A stretch of 5,206 bases of DNA from a virus: positions 1 through 5,206 of the IMG/VR virus record IMGVR_UViG_3300011982_000022; one strand, 5' to 3'. The notes beneath the pieces were generated by a model. That model saw nothing but the letters and a program-made list of their open reading frames with translations. It had not been told where the DNA came from and ran no database searches. Positions 1 through 5,206 of the stretch are shown piece after piece (position 1 is the stretch's first letter; every line of letters begins with the position of its first letter). Both the position numbers and the translations under genes were made by a program.

Positions 1-99
1 ATTCTTCCTCCAAAACTGAAATAATTTTATAATTACCTTTTACTTGCGCTTTTAATTCTCGAACCATCGGCGTAAGTATCTTGTAATTCCGTCTACCAA
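1..99. repeat. Terminal redundancy copy 1; identical to 5108-5206. Circular genome, unit length 5107 nt
   Basis: Direct comparison: window 1-99 (attcttcctccaaaactgaaataattttataattacc...gtctaccaa) is base-for-base identical to 5108-5206. Microviridae genomes are circular ssDNA, so this is most simply a linearisation/assembly overlap. Confidence 0.95.
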
Positions 100-160
100 G
101 TAAACGCAAAATACGTTTAATCAATTCTAAATCTTCAACAGGTACCATTACATAATCCAT
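1..160 (-). CDS. Hypothetical small protein, 53 aa (MDYVMVPVEDLELIKRILRLLGRRNYKILTPMVRELKAQVKGNYKIISVLEEE). Sense codons are 2-160; the stop codon TGA is formed across the circular junction (5106-5107 plus 1), i.e. 5106-5108 in the duplicated copy
   Basis: ATG at 160-158 preceded by AAGGAG (169-164) with a 6-nt spacer. Hand translation of the minus strand gives an uninterrupted 53-codon frame. Same strand as all other genes. Too short for the ORF track. The stop TGA overlaps the ATG of the next ORF (TGATG). Confidence 0.5.
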   Translation of the reverse strand, partial: MDYVMVPVEDLELIKRILRLLGRRNYKILTPMVRELKAQVKGNYKIISVLEEE

Positions 161-206
161 AAATCGCTCCTTATTCTGTCTATCTGATTTACATCCCATA
201 ATGTAT

Positions 207-235
207 AGTATGTCGCCAACTTTTTCATCTGTCAA
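207..235 (-). promoter_or_regulatory. Candidate sigma70-like promoter on the minus strand: TTGACA (235-230), 17-nt spacer, CATACT (212-207), upstream of the 53-aa ORF
   Basis: Perfect -35 hexamer TTGACA. The -10 candidate CATACT keeps the conserved A2 and T6. It lies in the 64-nt gap between the 46-aa and 53-aa ORFs. The -10 is weak, and TACTAT at a 19-nt spacing is the alternative. Confidence 0.2.
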
Positions 236-365
236 GTAATTTTTTTATAAACTTATAAAAAACTACACAAACAACAACCAAAAGCACTAACATTGCCAAC
301 GCCGAAAGCAAACCAGCAACATCCATTCTAGAATTCTGCACAACATCAACATCTCTAACACCCAT
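225..365 (-). CDS. Small single-pass membrane protein, 46 aa (MGVRDVDVVQNSRMDVAGLLSALAMLVLLVVVCVVFYKFIKKLLDR)
   Basis: ATG at 365-363 with GAGGT (372-376, overlapping the VP2 stop TGA) 6 nt upstream. The frame was verified codon by codon and stops at TGA 227-225. A 22-residue uninterrupted hydrophobic core (VAGLLSALAMLVLLVVVCVVFY) is followed by a basic tail (KFIKKLLDR). Not in the ORF track (below size cutoff). Confidence 0.55.
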   Translation of the reverse strand: MGVRDVDVVQNSRMDVAGLLSALAMLVLLVVVCVVFYKFIKKLLDR

Positions 366-374
366 TTCATTACC

Positions 375-1196
375 TCACTGCATTTGTTTAAGAATAGGAT
401 TCATCGCTTTTTCAAACCATTTATTACCAAAAAGACTATCAATCGCTTTATTTCCAAGACTTGCAAAACCTTTAGCAGCATTTCCAACTTCACCATAATT
501 ATAACGCGGGTTAATACCCGTTGCATAATACTTTTGTAAATCAACAAGCGTCATAACTCTTTCCATCTGCGCCGTAAGTATATCACTCGCAATTTTATCC
601 ATCTGCATCTTATACAGATTTCCGTGAATTTTGTTCAAGTCAACATTCGAACGGCTTAAACCTGAATTCGCACGATTTAAATCTTTCTGCGAGCCATAAA
701 ATGAAGCATCACGACGAGAAGCCTCTGCTCCAATTTCACGAGCTTGATACGCTCTCGCCAAATTATCAGCAATCTGGCTATCAACAGCCGTAGACTGCGC
801 GTCAAATAATTTTCCTTGCGATACCGCGCGAGAAGTATTCGCTTGAGCTTCCTGCGTCTCCGCTGAAAGTTTACGAATTTGAGCCAGATTCGTCAATGCC
901 GCAATCGCATTCATTGCAACATCCATCTTCGAAGCATCAACTTGAGGAGCCTGCACAGGAACCGAAACGCCGGCATTTGCAGCACTACCTGCAGCAAGCG
1001 TTTTAGATAAGCCGGCAGCTTCCAAATCGGCAACACGACGCTGCACCGCATTATCCTCACGAGCAAAAATCTGCTGTTGAATACCTTTATCATACTCCAT
1101 CTTTTGATGCTGTTGAACAGCATTATATATACTAATACCACTATTCACAGTACCAGAAATCGCACCTGCTATAATCTCTGCAATCGGAGCACCCAT
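375..1196 (-). CDS. VP2: VP2-like minor capsid / DNA pilot protein, 273 aa
   Basis: ORF track 375..1196. ATG at 1196 preceded by AAGGTGG (1209-1203) with a 6-nt spacer. Gly/Ala-rich N-terminus (MGAPIAEIIAGAISGTVNSG) followed by a long Gln/Ala/Asn-rich predicted coiled-coil region, the typical composition of microvirus H/VP2 pilot proteins. Located downstream of VP1. Confidence 0.8.
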   Translation of the reverse strand: MGAPIAEIIAGAISGTVNSGISIYNAVQQHQKMEYDKGIQQQIFAREDNAVQRRVADLEAAGLSKTLAAGSAANAGVSVPVQAPQVDASKMDVAMNAIAALTNLAQIRKLSAETQEAQANTSRAVSQGKLFDAQSTAVDSQIADNLARAYQAREIGAEASRRDASFYGSQKDLNRANSGLSRSNVDLNKIHGNLYKMQMDKIASDILTAQMERVMTLVDLQKYYATGINPRYNYGEVGNAAKGFASLGNKAIDSLFGNKWFEKAMNPILKQMQ

Positions 1197-1214
1197 CTTT
1201 TACCACCTTTCGGT

Positions 1215-1260
1215 GTCATCTAGCATTATACACAACAAGAAAGGGTTAATGCTAGATGAC
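1215..1260. promoter_or_regulatory. Hairpin H1: perfect 14-bp inverted repeat (1215-1228 gtcatctagcatta / 1247-1260 taatgctagatgac) with an 18-nt loop. The loop carries TATAAT on the minus strand (1230-1225). It ends 5 nt upstream of the VP2 SD
   Basis: Read directly: the reverse complement of 1247-1260 equals 1215-1228. It sits in the only sizeable intergenic region. Confidence 0.45.
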
Positions 1261-1274
1261 CAACTCAAATTGAA

Positions 1275-1308
1275 TTAGGGGAAAGGGGTTGCGCCCCCTT
1301 TCCCCTAA
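1275..1308 (-). terminator. Hairpin H2: perfect GC-rich 14-bp stem (1275-1288 ttaggggaaagggg / 1295-1308 cccctttcccctaa) with a 6-nt loop ttgcgc. Candidate intrinsic terminator after the VP4-VP1-scaffold transcript, or origin/packaging element
   Basis: Read directly. It lies 5 nt downstream of the scaffold-like ORF stop (1313-1315) on the mRNA strand. On the minus strand the stem is followed by UUCAAUUUG, an imperfect U-tract. Confidence 0.5.
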
Positions 1309-1312
1309 AACC

Positions 1313-1702
1313 TCATTTGCCGCTTTGACTCTCTTGAGGAACATCCGATTCACCTTTGACATCAGTGGATTGCTCCGTAGCGGCAATCGTTGCATCTTGC
1401 TGTGTCTCTATTTGTTTAGCAACATTTTGAGACATTCGCAATAATGCATCTCTTTGTGCCACTGCTGCATCCACAATGTCAAAATCTTCATCACGTGTTA
1501 AATCTTCAAGAGATTCATCAATCTCACCATCAAAATCATAAATACCAAGATTACGCACAAAATCAAGGCTTTTTCCTGCTTTCAAAAATCTATCAACCTG
1601 TTGCGCTACCGAGAGCGGACGAACAAGCTGAAAATCTGAAACTTTCTTCGCATCATAAACAGGATTGACCATCTTCCAAGTCGCTGTAGTTTGTTCTGTC
1701 AT
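1313..1702 (-). CDS. Acidic internal scaffolding-like protein (VP3-like), 129 aa from ATG 1702 (track ORF 1313..1714 uses a TTG 4 codons upstream)
   Basis: ATG at 1702-1700 preceded by GAGGTG (1712-1707). Stop TGA at 1315-1313. Strongly acidic (YDFDGEIDESLEDLTRDEDFDIVDAAV...), the size and charge expected of a gokushovirus VP3 scaffold. The TTG at 1714 overlaps the VP1 stop but is a less likely start. Confidence 0.65.
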   Translation of the reverse strand: MTEQTTATWKMVNPVYDAKKVSDFQLVRPLSVAQQVDRFLKAGKSLDFVRNLGIYDFDGEIDESLEDLTRDEDFDIVDAAVAQRDALLRMSQNVAKQIETQQDATIAATEQSTDVKGESDVPQESQSGK

Positions 1703-1710
1703 TTTACACC

Positions 1711-3498
1711 TCAATGATCAATAAGACCGGGAACGGGAATAAGCGGCATCGGACGCCACGCATCAACACGCGTCAAAATCTCGATCACCGCACAATTTTC
1801 ATCATGCACCGCGAAAATATCCTTACGAGGATAACAACGTATAAACGATGAGTTCAACTGCGGAGGATTCGCCGGATCAAATTGCCGAGCCAAATGCCAA
1901 TAACCATATTTTTTACGCATATCACCGCAAACCTGCGTTGTCTTTGCACGATATTCATCATACCGCCCTTGATAACCGAACAAACCGGCAGCACCATCAC
2001 CAAGCTGCGCAGGTGTCATAACCGACGGAGACGCAACCAATTCAGCTTCACGCACTTCCTGTTCAGATAAATTAGCAAACTCGGGAAGATAGAAATCATA
2101 CCGCGACCGTCGCAACATTTCACGATGAATACCTTGCGAACTAAACGACTGGTCCGGACGCAAAAAAGCAAGACCGATTACATAGCCATGTTCACGAGCG
2201 CTAAACTTTCCAACAAAATCACCACCAATCGAAACACCACGAGACGCTAAATTACCTTGCGGACTGTTCGAAACCGACGAAGATGTCTGAACAACCTCAT
2301 TAACCAATACAACCGATTTAGTACCTCCAATAAAATGCGGACGCTGGAGTGTATCATCATTCGGCGCTACACCAAACACAGACAAAAGACCTTCAACATA
2401 CCGAGCACCTCCACGCGCCATTCGCTCCATAAAACGTTGGGTTTGAAACATCAAACGCATATCCGATACATCCGCAAAACTTGACGATTCCAACGGAAAA
2501 CGAGAATAAGCTAAACGCTGAGGAACACCCTCAGGTTGCTTAGTAGTAGACACACGATTATTTGCTGGCAAAATATTCCCAGTATTATTAACTATAAGTT
2601 TTTGCTCAGTATCATTTATATAATTTGAATCAAAATCAGCATAATTTGAATTAAAAGTAGGAAATGGCGGATCTTCCATAAAAGCAGCATTAGCAGTACG
2701 TCTATGAAAACGTTCTAAATATAATCTTGCATTATCCACAGAAGTAGGAACCAATGTAAAACCAGGAGAACTCAAAGGCAAAGCAACCGGCTCACCACGC
2801 TGTTGCCACGGCAAAGACGATGTAAAATAATTTGAGGTCCACGTACACAAGAACAATCCCATATCATCGAGCTTTCGTTCATCTTCCAAGTTCTCATTTC
2901 GATAACATTCGTTGTAAATATAATTATACGCAATCAACGGAAAAGCAAGCGGACAATACGCCGAATAATCTGTATCCGCACCATTCTTTCCAACATCACT
3001 CAAATCTCCAAATCCAACAGACGTCGGAAATCCAAACGCATCCCAGAGCGAACCGACAGCATCAGCTTTTCCAGTTCGAGGAACAAGGGCGCCACTGACA
3101 ACTTTTGAACCAGAAATTCGAACATCATTTTTATTCGGAATCCAGAGGGGCAGGGTAGGGGTAATACCGGCTTCAGTTACTCCATCACCTTTCTTTCCGC
3201 CAAAAATAAAAGTCTCCCAACCTTTTGCAATTTCGGGAAACTTCTGCTGATACAATACACGAGAGGGAACATACCAGAAATGCGTTATAAACTTAATACC
3301 AGTCATCGGAACCGACACCATCGGTAAAAGCCGAACAAGCGCCGAAGCGCTTATTTTCAACACATCACCAGGAATAACTTCTCGGAAATATACAGGATGA
3401 ACTTCACCCATATCACAAGAATACATCTTATGATTATCCAAACGGAACCGCGACCGTTTCAAATGCCGAACAGGCACTTGTCCGAATACATCCATCAT
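1711..3498 (-). CDS. VP1: Major capsid protein VP1 (F-like jelly-roll), 595 aa
   Basis: ORF track. N-terminus RSRFRLDNHKMYSCDMGEVHPVYFREVIPGDVL matches the conserved gokushovirus VP1 start (RNRF.L...DMG.L.P...EVLPGD). AAGGAG is 4 nt upstream of the ATG. The ATG (3498-3496) overlaps the upstream ORF stop (ATGA). The size is typical of Gokushovirinae VP1. Confidence 0.93.
   Translation of the reverse strand: MMDVFGQVPVRHLKRSRFRLDNHKMYSCDMGEVHPVYFREVIPGDVLKISASALVRLLPMVSVPMTGIKFITHFWYVPSRVLYQQKFPEIAKGWETFIFGGKKGDGVTEAGITPTLPLWIPNKNDVRISGSKVVSGALVPRTGKADAVGSLWDAFGFPTSVGFGDLSDVGKNGADTDYSAYCPLAFPLIAYNYIYNECYRNENLEDERKLDDMGLFLCTWTSNYFTSSLPWQQRGEPVALPLSSPGFTLVPTSVDNARLYLERFHRRTANAAFMEDPPFPTFNSNYADFDSNYINDTEQKLIVNNTGNILPANNRVSTTKQPEGVPQRLAYSRFPLESSSFADVSDMRLMFQTQRFMERMARGGARYVEGLLSVFGVAPNDDTLQRPHFIGGTKSVVLVNEVVQTSSSVSNSPQGNLASRGVSIGGDFVGKFSAREHGYVIGLAFLRPDQSFSSQGIHREMLRRSRYDFYLPEFANLSEQEVREAELVASPSVMTPAQLGDGAAGLFGYQGRYDEYRAKTTQVCGDMRKKYGYWHLARQFDPANPPQLNSSFIRCYPRKDIFAVHDENCAVIEILTRVDAWRPMPLIPVPGLIDH
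2620..2661. repeat. Imperfect 21-nt tandem duplication inside VP1 (2620-2640 ataatttgaatcaaaatcagc / 2641-2661 ataatttgaattaaaagtagg; 17 of 21 identical), encoding the 7-aa repeat PTFNSNY/ADFDSNY
   Basis: Direct alignment of the two adjacent 21-mers. It lies in a visibly AT-rich island (about 2560-2700) of the VP1 gene. Confidence 0.6.
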
Positions 3499-3818
3499 TC
3501 AGCTCCTTGCGAAATCTGTTCCGCAGAAATAGGCTCAACCTCTGATTCAACCGAAGCATCTTCATCATACAAAACATCACACGCTTTCATTACTTCTTGA
3601 GGAATTATTTTTATATCTTCAGAAAAAACAATTCCCGTTTCTTCATCATAATCGCACATCGAAATCAACGAAAAATCATCCAACGAAATATTCTTTTGCT
3701 TTACCATAACACGATTCACCGTATCTGCAAAAATACGCTTCGCGACACCGTCATTCTTTGCATTGAACACATTTCCACACAATTCAGCAACCTTATCGTA
3801 AATACAATAGATTTTCAT
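3495..3818 (-). CDS. Hypothetical acidic protein, 107 aa, in the VP5 / protein-C position between the replication initiator and VP1
   Basis: ORF track. ATG at 3818 preceded by GAGGTG with a 5-nt spacer (GTGAGGTGTAAAAATG). It begins 2 nt after the VP4 stop, and its stop overlaps the VP1 start (ATGA at 3495-3498). The C-terminus is acidic (DEDASVESEVEPISAEQ). Confidence 0.75.
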   Translation of the reverse strand: MKIYCIYDKVAELCGNVFNAKNDGVAKRIFADTVNRVMVKQKNISLDDFSLISMCDYDEETGIVFSEDIKIIPQEVMKACDVLYDEDASVESEVEPISAEQISQGAE

Positions 3819-3820
3819 TT

Positions 3821-4690
3821 TTACACCTCACTATGTTTGTTATAAAGCGATATCTTTGAATTGACAGTCTGTTCACGCAATCGAGCATTTTTCCTACGCT
3901 CCGAAAGATAATACATGTATGCCATATCATAATCATTCTGATCAGACAGCGAAAACTCGGAACCAAACTTCGACGAAAAAATACGCGCAAAACGCAAAAA
4001 ATCTTCCTGCTCTTTATCACGCATCAATTCATTAAGCCGTTCCTTGTCCACATGGATTTTTTCTCGGTAATAACGAGGCAACGCCATCACATGCTTATCA
4101 ATTCGCACTAAACCGCTTTCCTTTAAAAAATCTGCATTCTCGATCGCAAAACCGAGACCTAAACCACGCGAACAAAGCGAGAAGGGCGGAGTAAGACCAT
4201 TTTCTTGATAATACGTCTTTCCAGACTTACCGTACAATTTTTTCTGCACATAGCCAGCAACATACCTACAACTATCATACGTTACCGATCCAATAGCTTT
4301 AGACGGCAAACACGCCCAATCTGCATACATCCACGCATTTTTAATTAACATTCTGTCAACCAAATCATTGGAATCCAGACCATATACTATTGCATGATAA
4401 TGTGGACGATGTGTTACATCACCATATTCACCAACCGCATAATATTTTATCTTGCGACCACCTAAAGACTTGCGTAATCGTTTGAAAAACAGCTGTACGT
4501 GCCTTTTACGTAGATTAGGCGGCAGATCTGCATCACGATATGTCAACGTGATAAACGCCGCACTTTTCCAATCTCTCAACTCAAACATTAAACGCATAGC
4601 CCATTGGTGAGACCGCATGATTTTACACGGCATGCAATGACCACAGGGCAGTGGAACACCGCCCTTATAAAAAGGGCGGACACAAACCAT
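3821..4690 (-). CDS. VP4: Rolling-circle replication initiation protein VP4 (HUH endonuclease, superfamily I; phiX174 gene A-like), 289 aa
   Basis: ORF track. Motif I FITLTY, motif II HYHAIVY, motif III YVAGYVQKK with two Tyr (compare phiX174 A YVAKYVNKK). N-terminal Cys cluster PCGHCMPC. The ATG at 4690 lies 2 nt after the stop of the Arg-rich peptide. Confidence 0.92.
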   Translation of the reverse strand: MVCVRPFYKGGVPLPCGHCMPCKIMRSHQWAMRLMFELRDWKSAAFITLTYRDADLPPNLRKRHVQLFFKRLRKSLGGRKIKYYAVGEYGDVTHRPHYHAIVYGLDSNDLVDRMLIKNAWMYADWACLPSKAIGSVTYDSCRYVAGYVQKKLYGKSGKTYYQENGLTPPFSLCSRGLGLGFAIENADFLKESGLVRIDKHVMALPRYYREKIHVDKERLNELMRDKEQEDFLRFARIFSSKFGSEFSLSDQNDYDMAYMYYLSERRKNARLREQTVNSKISLYNKHSEV

Positions 4691-4692
4691 AT

Positions 4693-4764
4693 TTACCTGC
4701 TGAAACCGCCTCTACGACGGCTATACTTCGTTATACGACGATGACGTCTTCGACGACGGCTCAC
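4693..4764 (-). CDS. Arginine-rich 23-aa peptide (M/V-SRRRRRHRRITKYSRRRGGFSR), GTG start. Candidate DNA-binding/packaging protein analogous to phiX174 J or gokushovirus VP8
   Basis: Hand translation of the minus strand: GTG at 4764-4762 preceded by a perfect GGAGG (4775-4771) with a 6-nt spacer, in-frame stop TAA at 4695-4693, and an upstream in-frame stop that bounds the ORF. 12 of 23 residues are Arg. Its GTG overlaps the TGA of the upstream 64-aa ORF (GTGA), and it ends 2 nt before the VP4 ATG. Not in the ORF track. Confidence 0.55.
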   Translation of the reverse strand: MSRRRRRHRRITKYSRRRGGFSR

Positions 4765-4955
4765 TTTTTACCTCCGGAAATCAATGAAACACCGGCTACC
4801 GTGCCAAAAATAGATTGCAATATTTTGACTGCAATATCAACGCCGCTATTGATGTGAGCAAGCGACTCGTTGCCCAAAACAATAGAGAGAGCGCAAAACA
4901 CAACAGCAAGAAAAAACATGAGCATTTTCACCCATTTATTCTTGAGAAATTCCAT
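4761..4955 (-). CDS. Small membrane protein, 64 aa (MEFLKNKWVKMLMFFLAVVFCALSIVLGNESLAHINSGVDIAVKILQSIFGTVAGVSLISGGKK), using the internal ATG of track ORF 4761..5024
   Basis: ATG at 4955-4953 has GGAGGT (4968-4963) with a 5-nt spacer. The track start at 5024 has no SD within range. Lys-rich N-terminus, then an 18-residue hydrophobic helix MLMFFLAVVFCALSIVLG, then a second weakly hydrophobic segment (IAVKILQSIFGTVAGVSLI). Confidence 0.6.
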   Translation of the reverse strand: MEFLKNKWVKMLMFFLAVVFCALSIVLGNESLAHINSGVDIAVKILQSIFGTVAGVSLISGGKK

Positions 4956-5106
4956 CTGAAACCTCCGTACCTTCAAAAACCTTCGCAACAACAGGCGAAC
5001 GATTTTGATTAAGCCAATCAACATAAGCCTGCGCCTTGTCTAAATCAGTGTAAGACCGACACCACGTTTGAAAGTCTTTCGACACCAACACAAAAAATAC
5101 CTTCAT
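4936..5106 (-). CDS. Hypothetical small protein, 56 aa (MKVFFVLVSKDFQTWCRSYTDLDKAQAYVDWLNQNRSPVVAKVFEGTEVSDGISQE)
   Basis: ATG at 5106-5104 preceded by a perfect GGAGG with a 7-nt spacer (ttGGAGGaagaatgATG). The ATG shares its A with the TGA stop of the 53-aa ORF (TGATG). The frame was verified by hand to TAA at 4938-4936, so its 3' end overlaps the SD and first 19 nt of the 64-aa membrane ORF in another frame. The sequence is non-repetitive and looks like a real protein. Not in the ORF track. Confidence 0.45.
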   Translation of the reverse strand: MKVFFVLVSKDFQTWCRSYTDLDKAQAYVDWLNQNRSPVVAKVFEGTEVSDGISQE

Positions 5107-5107
5107 C

Positions 5108-5206
5108 ATTCTTCCTCCAAAACTGAAATAATTTTATAATTACCTTTTACTTGCGCTTTTAATTCTCGAACCATCGGCGTAAGTATCTTGTAATTCCGTC
5201 TACCAA
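5108..5206. repeat. Terminal redundancy copy 2 (same as 1-99)
   Basis: Exact 99-nt identity with window start. It contains the 3' part of the 53-aa ORF a second time. Confidence 0.95.

Follow-up and report, generated by a model that had tools for sequence, protein, structure and literature searches.

The stretch of DNA analysed here (IMG/VR record IMGVR_UViG_3300011982_000022, positions 1 to 5,206; hereafter the window, 5,206 nt in all) is the genome of a gokushovirus-like microvirus, and our subject is a pair of hairpins, H1 and H2, in the 116-nt gap between its scaffold-like gene and its pilot-protein gene. Across the family, the loop of H1 carries the motif CTTG(A/T)T, which corresponds to the core that gene A protein cuts in phiX174, the replication initiators (Rep) of the window and of phiX174 share catalytic motifs, and the element is widely conserved; on these grounds, H1 is very likely the viral-strand origin of rolling-circle replication, with a phiX-type nick core placed in an intergenic hairpin. 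The fuller reading, in which H1 is this origin and H2 is a leaky intrinsic terminator, we consider reasonably probable. Gokushoviruses are the most abundant and diverse microviruses of gut, oral, and environmental viromes. We found no description of the H1 motif or of a mapped gokushovirus origin in the literature searched, although an early mention in the older papers on SpV4, Chp1, Chp2, or phiMH2K is possible. An origin of this kind is known, but its form and its identification in the gokushovirus-like subfamily appear to be new.

Conservation of H1 and its likeness to the phiX174 origin

A repeat search of the window returned H1 (1215-1228/1247-1260) and H2 (1275-1288/1295-1308), each with arms of 14 nt that are 100% complementary, enclosing loops of 18 nt and 6 nt, respectively. 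No other perfect inverted repeat in the window exceeds 10 nt. Because every gene of the window lies on the minus strand, both have to be read as the reverse complement of the plus-strand text. When the 116-nt gap was folded as the coding (minus) strand and compared with 200 shuffles, both hairpins appeared in its centroid structure. As DNA, the gap reached -29.1 kcal/mol, where the shuffles averaged -10.8 (z = -6.92, with 0 of 200 shuffles as stable), and as RNA it reached -51.7 kcal/mol against -27.9 (z = -6.95). By our own estimate, chance would supply about 3.5e-4 perfect 14-bp hairpins with loops of 3-20 nt per 5.2 kb. An original prediction, made from the letters of the window, had placed two perfect 14-bp hairpins in this gap; they are present exactly where it put them (z of about -6.9) and are confirmed as real and non-random. 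It had also called the gap the sole intergenic region, whereas the gap is the largest non-coding region, and positions 171-224 are likewise non-coding and hold a dif-like core. An Rfam scan of the whole window at E <= 1 gave no match.

In a sensitive blastn search with the gap, five Microviridae that are dissimilar elsewhere gave intergenic matches to H1 alone (about 80% identity) and none to H2 or the flanking genes. Read in the sense of the window's coding strand, these copies have a variable stem, a CTTGAT loop (CTTGTT in the window), and an invariant GCTAGATGACACC. The first pattern scan (TGTCATCTAGC...GCTAG) returned mainly chance matches in large phage contigs, and a stem-extension filter was needed. 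Scanning of viral contigs gave 23 stretches, mostly in microvirus contigs of 4-6 kb, and the stems of the scanned copies diverge yet stay complementary (for example, GCACTATA/TATAGTGC, GCATTAAT/ATTAATGC, and GGCCACATTAA/TTAATGTGGCC).

A covariance model of H1 was built from 23 instances and run against 80 genomes that were chosen by Rep homology only, each oriented with Rep on the plus strand. It gave one match at E < 0.01 in 63 of the 80 genomes (72 at E <= 1), and H1 lay on the Rep strand in 61 of the 63. The window copy scored 54.8 bits on the minus strand against 21 on the plus strand and is single, as it is elsewhere: there is one H1 in each genome with a match, and apparent duplicates were due solely to the terminal redundancy of contigs. 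Chlamydia phage Chp2 has a match of 36.6 bits in its VP3/ORF8 gap, and Spiroplasma phage SpV4 has a weaker but recognisable copy (GGGGCATAT..TACTTGTTAT..ATATGCCCC-ATTGACGAC). For phiMH2K there is only a doubtful candidate, and the covariance model found no copy in phiX174.

Covariation of the stems in related genomes, named in the original prediction as a check, is borne out, with strong covariation of the H1 pairs and compensatory changes in the H2 of close relatives. In a 79-sequence alignment, standard pairs occupy 90.2% of the H1 stem cells as against 27-42% for slid partners, the covariation score is 0.697 against 0.04-0.14 in slid controls, and double-sided changes occur at 12 of 12 pairs; the alignment was fitted to the model, which inflates these figures, but the margin is still very large. 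The inner helix has 169 double changes and hardly any G.U pairs, a pattern that speaks for a hairpin of Watson-Crick-paired DNA more than for an RNA structure.

The conserved parts of H1 are unpaired. CTTG is invariant in the loop and CTTG(A/T)T nearly so, and beyond the stem stands the 3' box TGACACC, of which TGACAC is invariant or nearly so in two alignments (A2 and A3). Among 70 distinct sequences, CTTG and TGACAC are spaced by 20 nt in 47 and by 21 nt in 20. Variants of the loop motif are CTTGAT, CTTGTT, and CTCGAT, and those of the box are TGACACC, TGACAGC, and GTGATAGC. Within the close clade, the block from CTTTCTTG to GACACCGA shows no differences, whereas identity in the neighbouring DNA is 78-90%, and the TGACACC box is identical in all close relatives beside a VP2 region that is 78-80% identical. 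These unpaired motifs are shared by phages of Chlamydia, Spiroplasma, Treponema, and environmental hosts, which argues for recognition by a phage protein and not by the priming enzymes of the host. The genes around H1 vary as well: it lies between the major capsid protein (MCP) gene and Rep in 44 genomes, and between Rep and MCP in 24. An element that stands between different gene pairs by lineage is better understood as autonomous than as a regulator of VP2.

The phiX174 gene A protein cuts CAACTTG|ATATTAATAACACTATAGACCAC between G4305 and A4306 (bioRxiv 10.64898/2026.07.25.740675). In phiX174, we read this core at 4302-4307, adjoining the annotated rep_origin at 4306, and the family loop hexamer CTTGAT is the same six bases that span the cut. 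The Rep of the window carries the motifs RPHYHAI and YVAGYVQKK, which match RLHFHAV and YVAKYVNKK of phiX174 A (where Tyr343 and Tyr347 are catalytic), and the two proteins match in BLASTP with E = 2e-4. One relative, L002, agrees with the phiX origin at 21 of 29 ungapped positions by our own count.

The coding strand is the packaged strand in known Microviridae. The 116-nt gap, read on the minus strand as the presumed packaged strand, would form a boundary between transcription and replication functions. The 14-bp stem of H1 would fold in the supercoiled replicative form or in the displaced single strand and so expose its loop. Rep, a VP4-like HUH endonuclease with two catalytic tyrosines in YVAGY, would bind the invariant TGACACC box just 3' of the stem, a candidate Rep-binding site, and would cut CTTG|TT between positions 1236 and 1235 of the minus strand, becoming covalently linked to the new 5' end. 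The nick is accordingly predicted between G1236 and T1235. A host polymerase would extend the 3'-OH, and after one round the regenerated hairpin would be recut and the ends joined, releasing a circular strand for packaging.

H2 as a probable terminator or a possible complementary-strand origin

We lean, by a modest degree, toward H2 as an intrinsic, leaky terminator of the Rep-VP5-VP1-VP3 transcript. It is listed first by a terminator-like scan and has the longest stem of the ten sites there (14 pairs, 8 of them GC, with a 6-nt loop and the tail TTCAATTTGA). The GC-rich stem lies on the transcribed strand and starts 4 nt, not the 5 nt first proposed, past the stop codon of the scaffold-like gene (1313-1315). 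Its tail is T-rich enough for the scan (5 T in 8), yet is interrupted, and some close relatives have better T-tracts after H2, such as TAATTTGATTTTTTG in L234. If H2 terminates, the spacer TTCAATTTGAGTTG would be the terminator tail. With its imperfect U-tract, H2 would end or attenuate the Rep-VP5-VP1-VP3 transcript ahead of the origin and would lower read-through into the low-copy pilot-protein gene, in the way that leaky terminators set gene dosage in phiX174. Of the roles that the original prediction offered for H2, the intrinsic terminator is plausible and preferred, though its tail is imperfect; an origin recognised by Rep is unlikely, given that the H2 sequence is unconserved beyond the immediate clade.

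Contigs with the same gap were reached through homologues of the scaffold-like protein, which are 84-93% identical and are located equivalently in relatives. All close-relative contigs found retain H2, in five variants, among which TTAGGGG/CCCCTAA becomes TTCGGGGG/CCCCCGAA and GGGGAAAGGGG/CCCCTTTCCCC becomes GGGAGAAAGGGG/CCCCTTTCTCCC. Three pairs are changed on both sides and 98.6% of cells are paired, with one uncompensated change and one change in the loop. The gap blastn did not find the H2 sequence outside the immediate clade, and the exact H2 core had no occurrence in JGI metagenomes. The placing of H2 relative to the stop codon is constant, but H1 follows it by 14 to about 74 nt: the spacer measures 14 nt in L231, L323, L325, and the window, and is about 60 nt longer in L232-L237 and L321. 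The longer spacers (L232 at about 7380-7440, L233, L234-L237, and L321) hold an A/T-rich insert, in which the open reading frames (ORFs) of 51-74 aa drawn by the gene caller look spurious.

Structure upstream of H1 is common in the wider family. The 70 nt upstream of H1 in relatives fold with a mean of -11.9 kcal/mol, against -6.0 for the background and -4.4 for the downstream side, and 40% of upstream stretches lie below the 5th percentile of the background as against 2% downstream. Many of these upstream hairpins are classic terminators, with an A-tract, a GC stem, and a T-tract; the T-tracts were judged qualitatively, as the hairpin finder counted A/T tracts as part of the stems. In L228 (999-1199), the closest of the complete relatives (Rep 47% identical), a large GC hairpin is followed by the terminator GCCTCTGTAGAGGTGCTTTTTT, and then by H1 (loop variant CTCGTT, box AGTGACACC), an A-run, a promoter (TTGACA-17-TAAGAT), and VP2.

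The same hairpin can be read in another way, which is compatible with a terminator role and which we entertain only tentatively: H2, alone or with H1, may be the complementary-strand (minus) origin. On the incoming single-stranded DNA, H2 would stay free of single-strand-binding protein, and host RNA polymerase, primase, or a PriA-type primosome would prime the second strand there. Every microvirus requires such an origin, and in rolling-circle plasmids the single-strand origins lie 5' of the nick site, the side on which stable hairpins are strongly enriched next to H1 in relatives, some of them without a T-tract. In phiX174 and G4, these origins lie in intergenic hairpins (PMC9865509). H2 forms a very stable hairpin with a sequence specific to its lineage, as would be expected of a signal recognised by the host; its structure is conserved with compensatory changes, a feature common to terminators that does not discriminate. 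However, when spacer length changes H2 follows the stop codon of the upstream gene and not H1, clear T-tracts of the kind seen in terminators accompany many of the equivalent hairpins in relatives, and we recognised no known single-strand-origin motif in H2. Among genomes in which H1 is inverted, a strong hairpin 5' of H1 is found only in L004 and a weaker one in L003 (L005 was not folded).

Weighing the readings of H1 and of the gap

The reading of H1 as a viral-strand origin and of H2 as a terminator has to be set against several observations that weigh against it. The phiX174 origin is not a hairpin and lies within gene A, so that its architecture differs from that of H1, and the window itself has CTTGTT and not CTTGAT. 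The phiX 30-mer finds its best match inside H1 in 5 of 75 genomes, which exceeds the roughly 0.25 expected but is far from all. A two-block weight matrix of the family fails to rank the phiX origin first within phiX174, and both nhmmer and the covariance model miss that origin, nhmmer being too insensitive and also missing Chp2. Firm identity with phiX174 is limited to the nick core of 6-7 nt plus a loose GAC(C)ACC box. H1 lies on the non-coding strand in about 3% of the sampled genomes and in one clade of bajarodmic viruses, which would need packaging of the antisense strand or a function independent of strand. The U-tract of H2 is interrupted (UAAUUCAAUUUG), and since a terminator and a complementary-strand origin would both lie on the same strand, sequence cannot separate the two. 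Finally, Rep cleavage at H1 and termination at H2 are both steps that we infer.

Homology of H1 to the phiX origin over its full length was considered and is not claimed, with the weight matrix, nhmmer, the covariance model, and the 30-mer scans all weak or negative. The likeness that we propose between H1 and the phiX origin is confined to the nick core and, more loosely, the box downstream; we do not extend it to the whole 30 nt. In phiX174 (L128), a small GC hairpin, CCCCGAAGGGG, stands at 4329-4343, directly after the 30-nt origin. The GC hairpin of the window is on the opposite (5') side of the origin-like element, unlike that of phiX174. On balance, the suggestion that the gap is a conserved module that may hold the poorly defined gokushovirus origin has stood, while the roles that the original prediction gave to the two hairpins are largely reversed.

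The genomes with an antisense H1 include L001, L003, L004, and L005 (bajarodmic viruses 325, 291, 702, and 745). The asymmetry of the scores is clear in them (in L004, 59.7 against 10.9 bits). The bajarodmic group also has an unusually long non-coding stretch of 200-480 nt past H1. A broader proposal would take H1 as an origin common to most gokushovirus-like microviruses, in which a phiX-type nick core has left the Rep gene for the loop of an intergenic hairpin and which, being self-contained, can be flipped, with antisense-H1 phages packaging the antisense strand and with H2 and H1 of the window forming a portable replication cassette in which H2 is the complementary-strand origin. We regard this proposal as rather unlikely. 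Inversion of H2 and H1 as one cassette is not supported as a general rule: the 5' hairpin is strong only in L004 and weaker in L003, and there is none in L001, L146, L224, or L154 (L005 was not folded). We know of no negative-sense microviruses. If H1 is an origin, the strand to be expected in virions of the antisense-H1 phages is the non-coding one, a novelty for the family.

That H1 is itself the complementary-strand origin, in place of the viral-strand origin, is improbable. It is strand-specific, conserved, and covarying, like the microvirus hairpins described in PMC9865509, and priming calls for a hairpin on the packaged strand. Host priming signals vary among bacteria, however, whereas the single-stranded motifs of H1 are conserved over very different hosts, and its loop hexamer is the cleavage site of the homologous phiX A protein.

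The proposal that H1 serves the expression of VP2, either through a TATAAT promoter (1230..1225) or as an mRNA hairpin acting in translation or stability, takes up the promoter or translational-control reading of the original prediction and fares a shade worse, to the point of being very improbable. A perfect TATAAT does stand 29 nt upstream of the VP2 ATG, H1 ends 6 nt ahead of the Shine-Dalgarno sequence, VP2 has no other room for a promoter of its own, and the relative L228 has a promoter just past H1. The hexamer, which had been placed inside the H1 loop, spans the junction of loop and stem on the minus strand, so that two of its six nucleotides belong to the loop and the other four to the 3' arm. 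It has no -35 element (2/6 at best, by eye) and no extended -10, it is absent from the list of the promoter scan, and its position is an ordinary, freely covarying stem position in relatives. H1 also precedes different genes by lineage and is antisense in some, and the near absence of its G.U pairs is unusual for an RNA structure. A separate candidate, a CACC-GAAA-GGTG mini-hairpin predicted by folding to sequester the Shine-Dalgarno sequence, was rejected too: close relatives have GGAGG, GGGGG, or GAGAGGTG, and the CACC/GGTG pairing is lost uncompensated.

Genome setting and comparison with known systems

The window represents a single circular genome of 5,107 nt, with bases 1-99 recurring at 5108-5206. 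Its features are collected in Table 1. The genome had no megablast match in the phage collection, where the best capsid identity was about 40%, and a major-capsid-protein search across the reference genomes gave no match. The product of the scaffold-like gene had no Pfam or PHROG match, and its VP3 label is based on position. The Shine-Dalgarno sequence of the VP2-like gene, AGGTGG (1208..1203, minus strand), starts 4 nt past the TGACACC box. Small ORFs are present besides the main genes. One of them encodes an arginine-rich peptide that resembles the J/VP8 DNA-binding proteins, so that the apparent gap at 4691-4760 ahead of Rep is coding. Another, a hydrophobic ORF of 46 aa after VP2 (225-365, minus strand), resembles Inovirus coat protein B weakly in Pfam (E = 0.0048, below threshold) and may encode a small membrane or lysis protein.

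Table 1. Features of the window, and positions of H1 in genomes that carry it on the non-coding strand
Feature	Position	Strand	Description
Rep (VP4-like) HUH endonuclease	3821..4690	-	Pfam PF23343 3e-20; PHROG 942 replication initiation protein 3e-79
23-aa arginine-rich peptide	4764..4693	-	VSRRRRRHRRITKYSRRRGGFSR; GTG start, GGAGG Shine-Dalgarno
ORF5/VP5-like protein	3818..3495	-	
F-type major capsid protein	3498..1711	-	
Scaffold-like (VP3-like) gene	1313..1714	-	133 aa; stop codon 1313-1315; from the ORF list
Hairpin gap	1312..1197		116 nt; between scaffold-like gene and VP2-like gene
H2	1275..1308	-	TTAGGGGAAAGGGG (1308..1295), loop GCGCAA (1294..1289), CCCCTTTCCCCTAA (1288..1275)
U/T-rich spacer	1261..1274	-	TTCAATTTGAGTTG; 14 nt, between H2 and H1
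H1	1215..1260	-	5' arm GTCATCTAGCATTA (1260..1247), loop ACCCTTTCTTGTTGTGTA (1246..1229), 3' arm TAATGCTAGATGAC (1228..1215)
CTTG|TT loop motif	1234..1239	-	predicted Rep recognition/nick motif; conserved in family
TGACACC 3' box	1212..1218	-	candidate Rep-binding 'key' sequence; starts 21 nt downstream of the C of CTTG
Pilot-protein (VP2-like) gene	375..1196	-	weak PHROG matches to pilot protein for DNA ejection, E ~3e-4
Antisense H1, L001	2399-2455		
Antisense H1, L003	2344-2400		
Antisense H1, L004	2385-2440		
Antisense H1, L005	2410-2450		
Antisense H1, L146	2728-2783		
Antisense H1, L224	4144-4200		
Antisense H1, L154	600-656		

Three relatives (L232, L233, and L234) are prophages in bacterial contigs. 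On one side of them lies rodA, accompanied by mreBCD and PBP2, and on the other lie mfd and genes for a nucleotidyl transferase and a GHMP kinase. The mfd product of these host contigs shares 95-97% identity with its counterparts in Treponema socranskii and Treponema sp. Marseille-Q4130, which points to a temperate gokushovirus-like phage of oral spirochetes; we found no report of a Treponema or spirochete host for Microviridae. One sample in this set (the relatives L232-L234, together with L241-L243) is labelled as a human oral metagenome. The prophages are flanked by a repeated core, ATACATTATRGGATGTAAWTTAG, that maps to about 189-222 of the window, in the second non-coding region (171-224); the flanking repeat of about 24 nt stands at 3377 and 8521 in L232, at 6428 and 11519 in L233, and at 4626 in L234. 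On the minus strand, this core contains CATACTATACATTATG, which matches the E. coli dif sequence at 15 of 16 positions, and it is probably an attachment site for XerCD-type integration. A promoter-like TTGACA-17-CATACT (235..207, minus strand) overlaps the dif-like core. The hairpins themselves as a feature of recombination or mobility, whether an attachment site (for instance, a XerCD substrate formed by folding, as CTX phage has) or a miniature inverted-repeat element, would suit integrated relatives and an H1 that occurs in both orientations relative to the genes by lineage, but we give this next to no credence and reject it, since the prophage junctions lie at about 189-222 and not at 1215-1308, the H2-H1 region is intact inside the L232, L233, and L234 prophages, and H1 is single-copy in each genome.

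As a single-copy, strand-specific hairpin with a nick core and a box, H1 makes the unmapped gokushovirus origin directly testable. It would also be useful as a reference point by which to orient and circularly permute metagenomic microvirus genomes, would offer a prediction of the packaged strand, and would provide a cis element for gokushovirus-based replicons or phagemids, including those for oral Treponema, for which there are few genetic tools.

Among the closest known counterparts is the 30-nt plus-strand origin (ori+) of the phiX174 type in the Bullavirinae. Like H1, it has its nick core on the viral (coding) strand, CTTG|AT as against CTTG|TT in the window and (A)CTTGAT in most relatives, followed by an A/T-rich stretch and a GAC(A/C)CC-type box about 21 nt downstream, and it is served by a homologous HUH initiator with a two-tyrosine YVAxYVxKK motif. 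The 3' box is TGACACC in H1 and AGACCACC in phiX174. Unlike H1, which is intergenic and presents its nick motif in the loop of a covarying hairpin of 8-14 bp, the phiX174 origin lies inside the Rep gene and has no hairpin. Rolling-circle plasmids of the pC194/pUB110 family are nicked at CTTG|ATA by a Rep superfamily related to phiX A; they have other Rep binding sequences and a separate single-strand origin hairpin upstream of the nick. The CRESS-DNA viruses (geminiviruses and circoviruses) resemble H1 in that a hairpin offers the nick site to an HUH Rep with binding determinants beside the stem. They differ in having a one-tyrosine Rep with a helicase domain, a nonanucleotide loop of the TAATATTAC type, and adjacent Rep-binding repeats, while no iterons were seen at H1.

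For the gap as a whole, the intergenic region of f1/M13 offers a parallel, as one non-coding region read on the packaged strand with several hairpins in separate roles: a minus-strand origin, a plus-strand origin that contains the nick, and, close by, a terminator or packaging signal. Unlike the window, these phages have an unrelated Rep (the gene II protein), a separate packaging-signal hairpin, and no sequence similarity to it. The leaky intrinsic terminators T_J, T_F, T_G, and T_H of phiX174 offer a parallel for H2, a GC hairpin that directly follows a structural gene, precedes the low-copy pilot-protein gene, and could tune expression through partial read-through. In phiX174, where the minus-strand origin (ori-) lies between F and G, the plus origin is not adjacent to the terminators or to ori-, unlike the arrangement of the gap, in which H2 is a candidate terminator. 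Among microviruses, reekeekee- and roodoodooviruses have conserved intergenic hairpins that were tentatively assigned to minus-strand synthesis (PMC9865509). Those hairpins share with H1 a conserved loop, compensatory changes in the stem, and conservation across a clade, but they occur in other clades and at other positions, and no nick motif or link to the phiX origin was reported for them.

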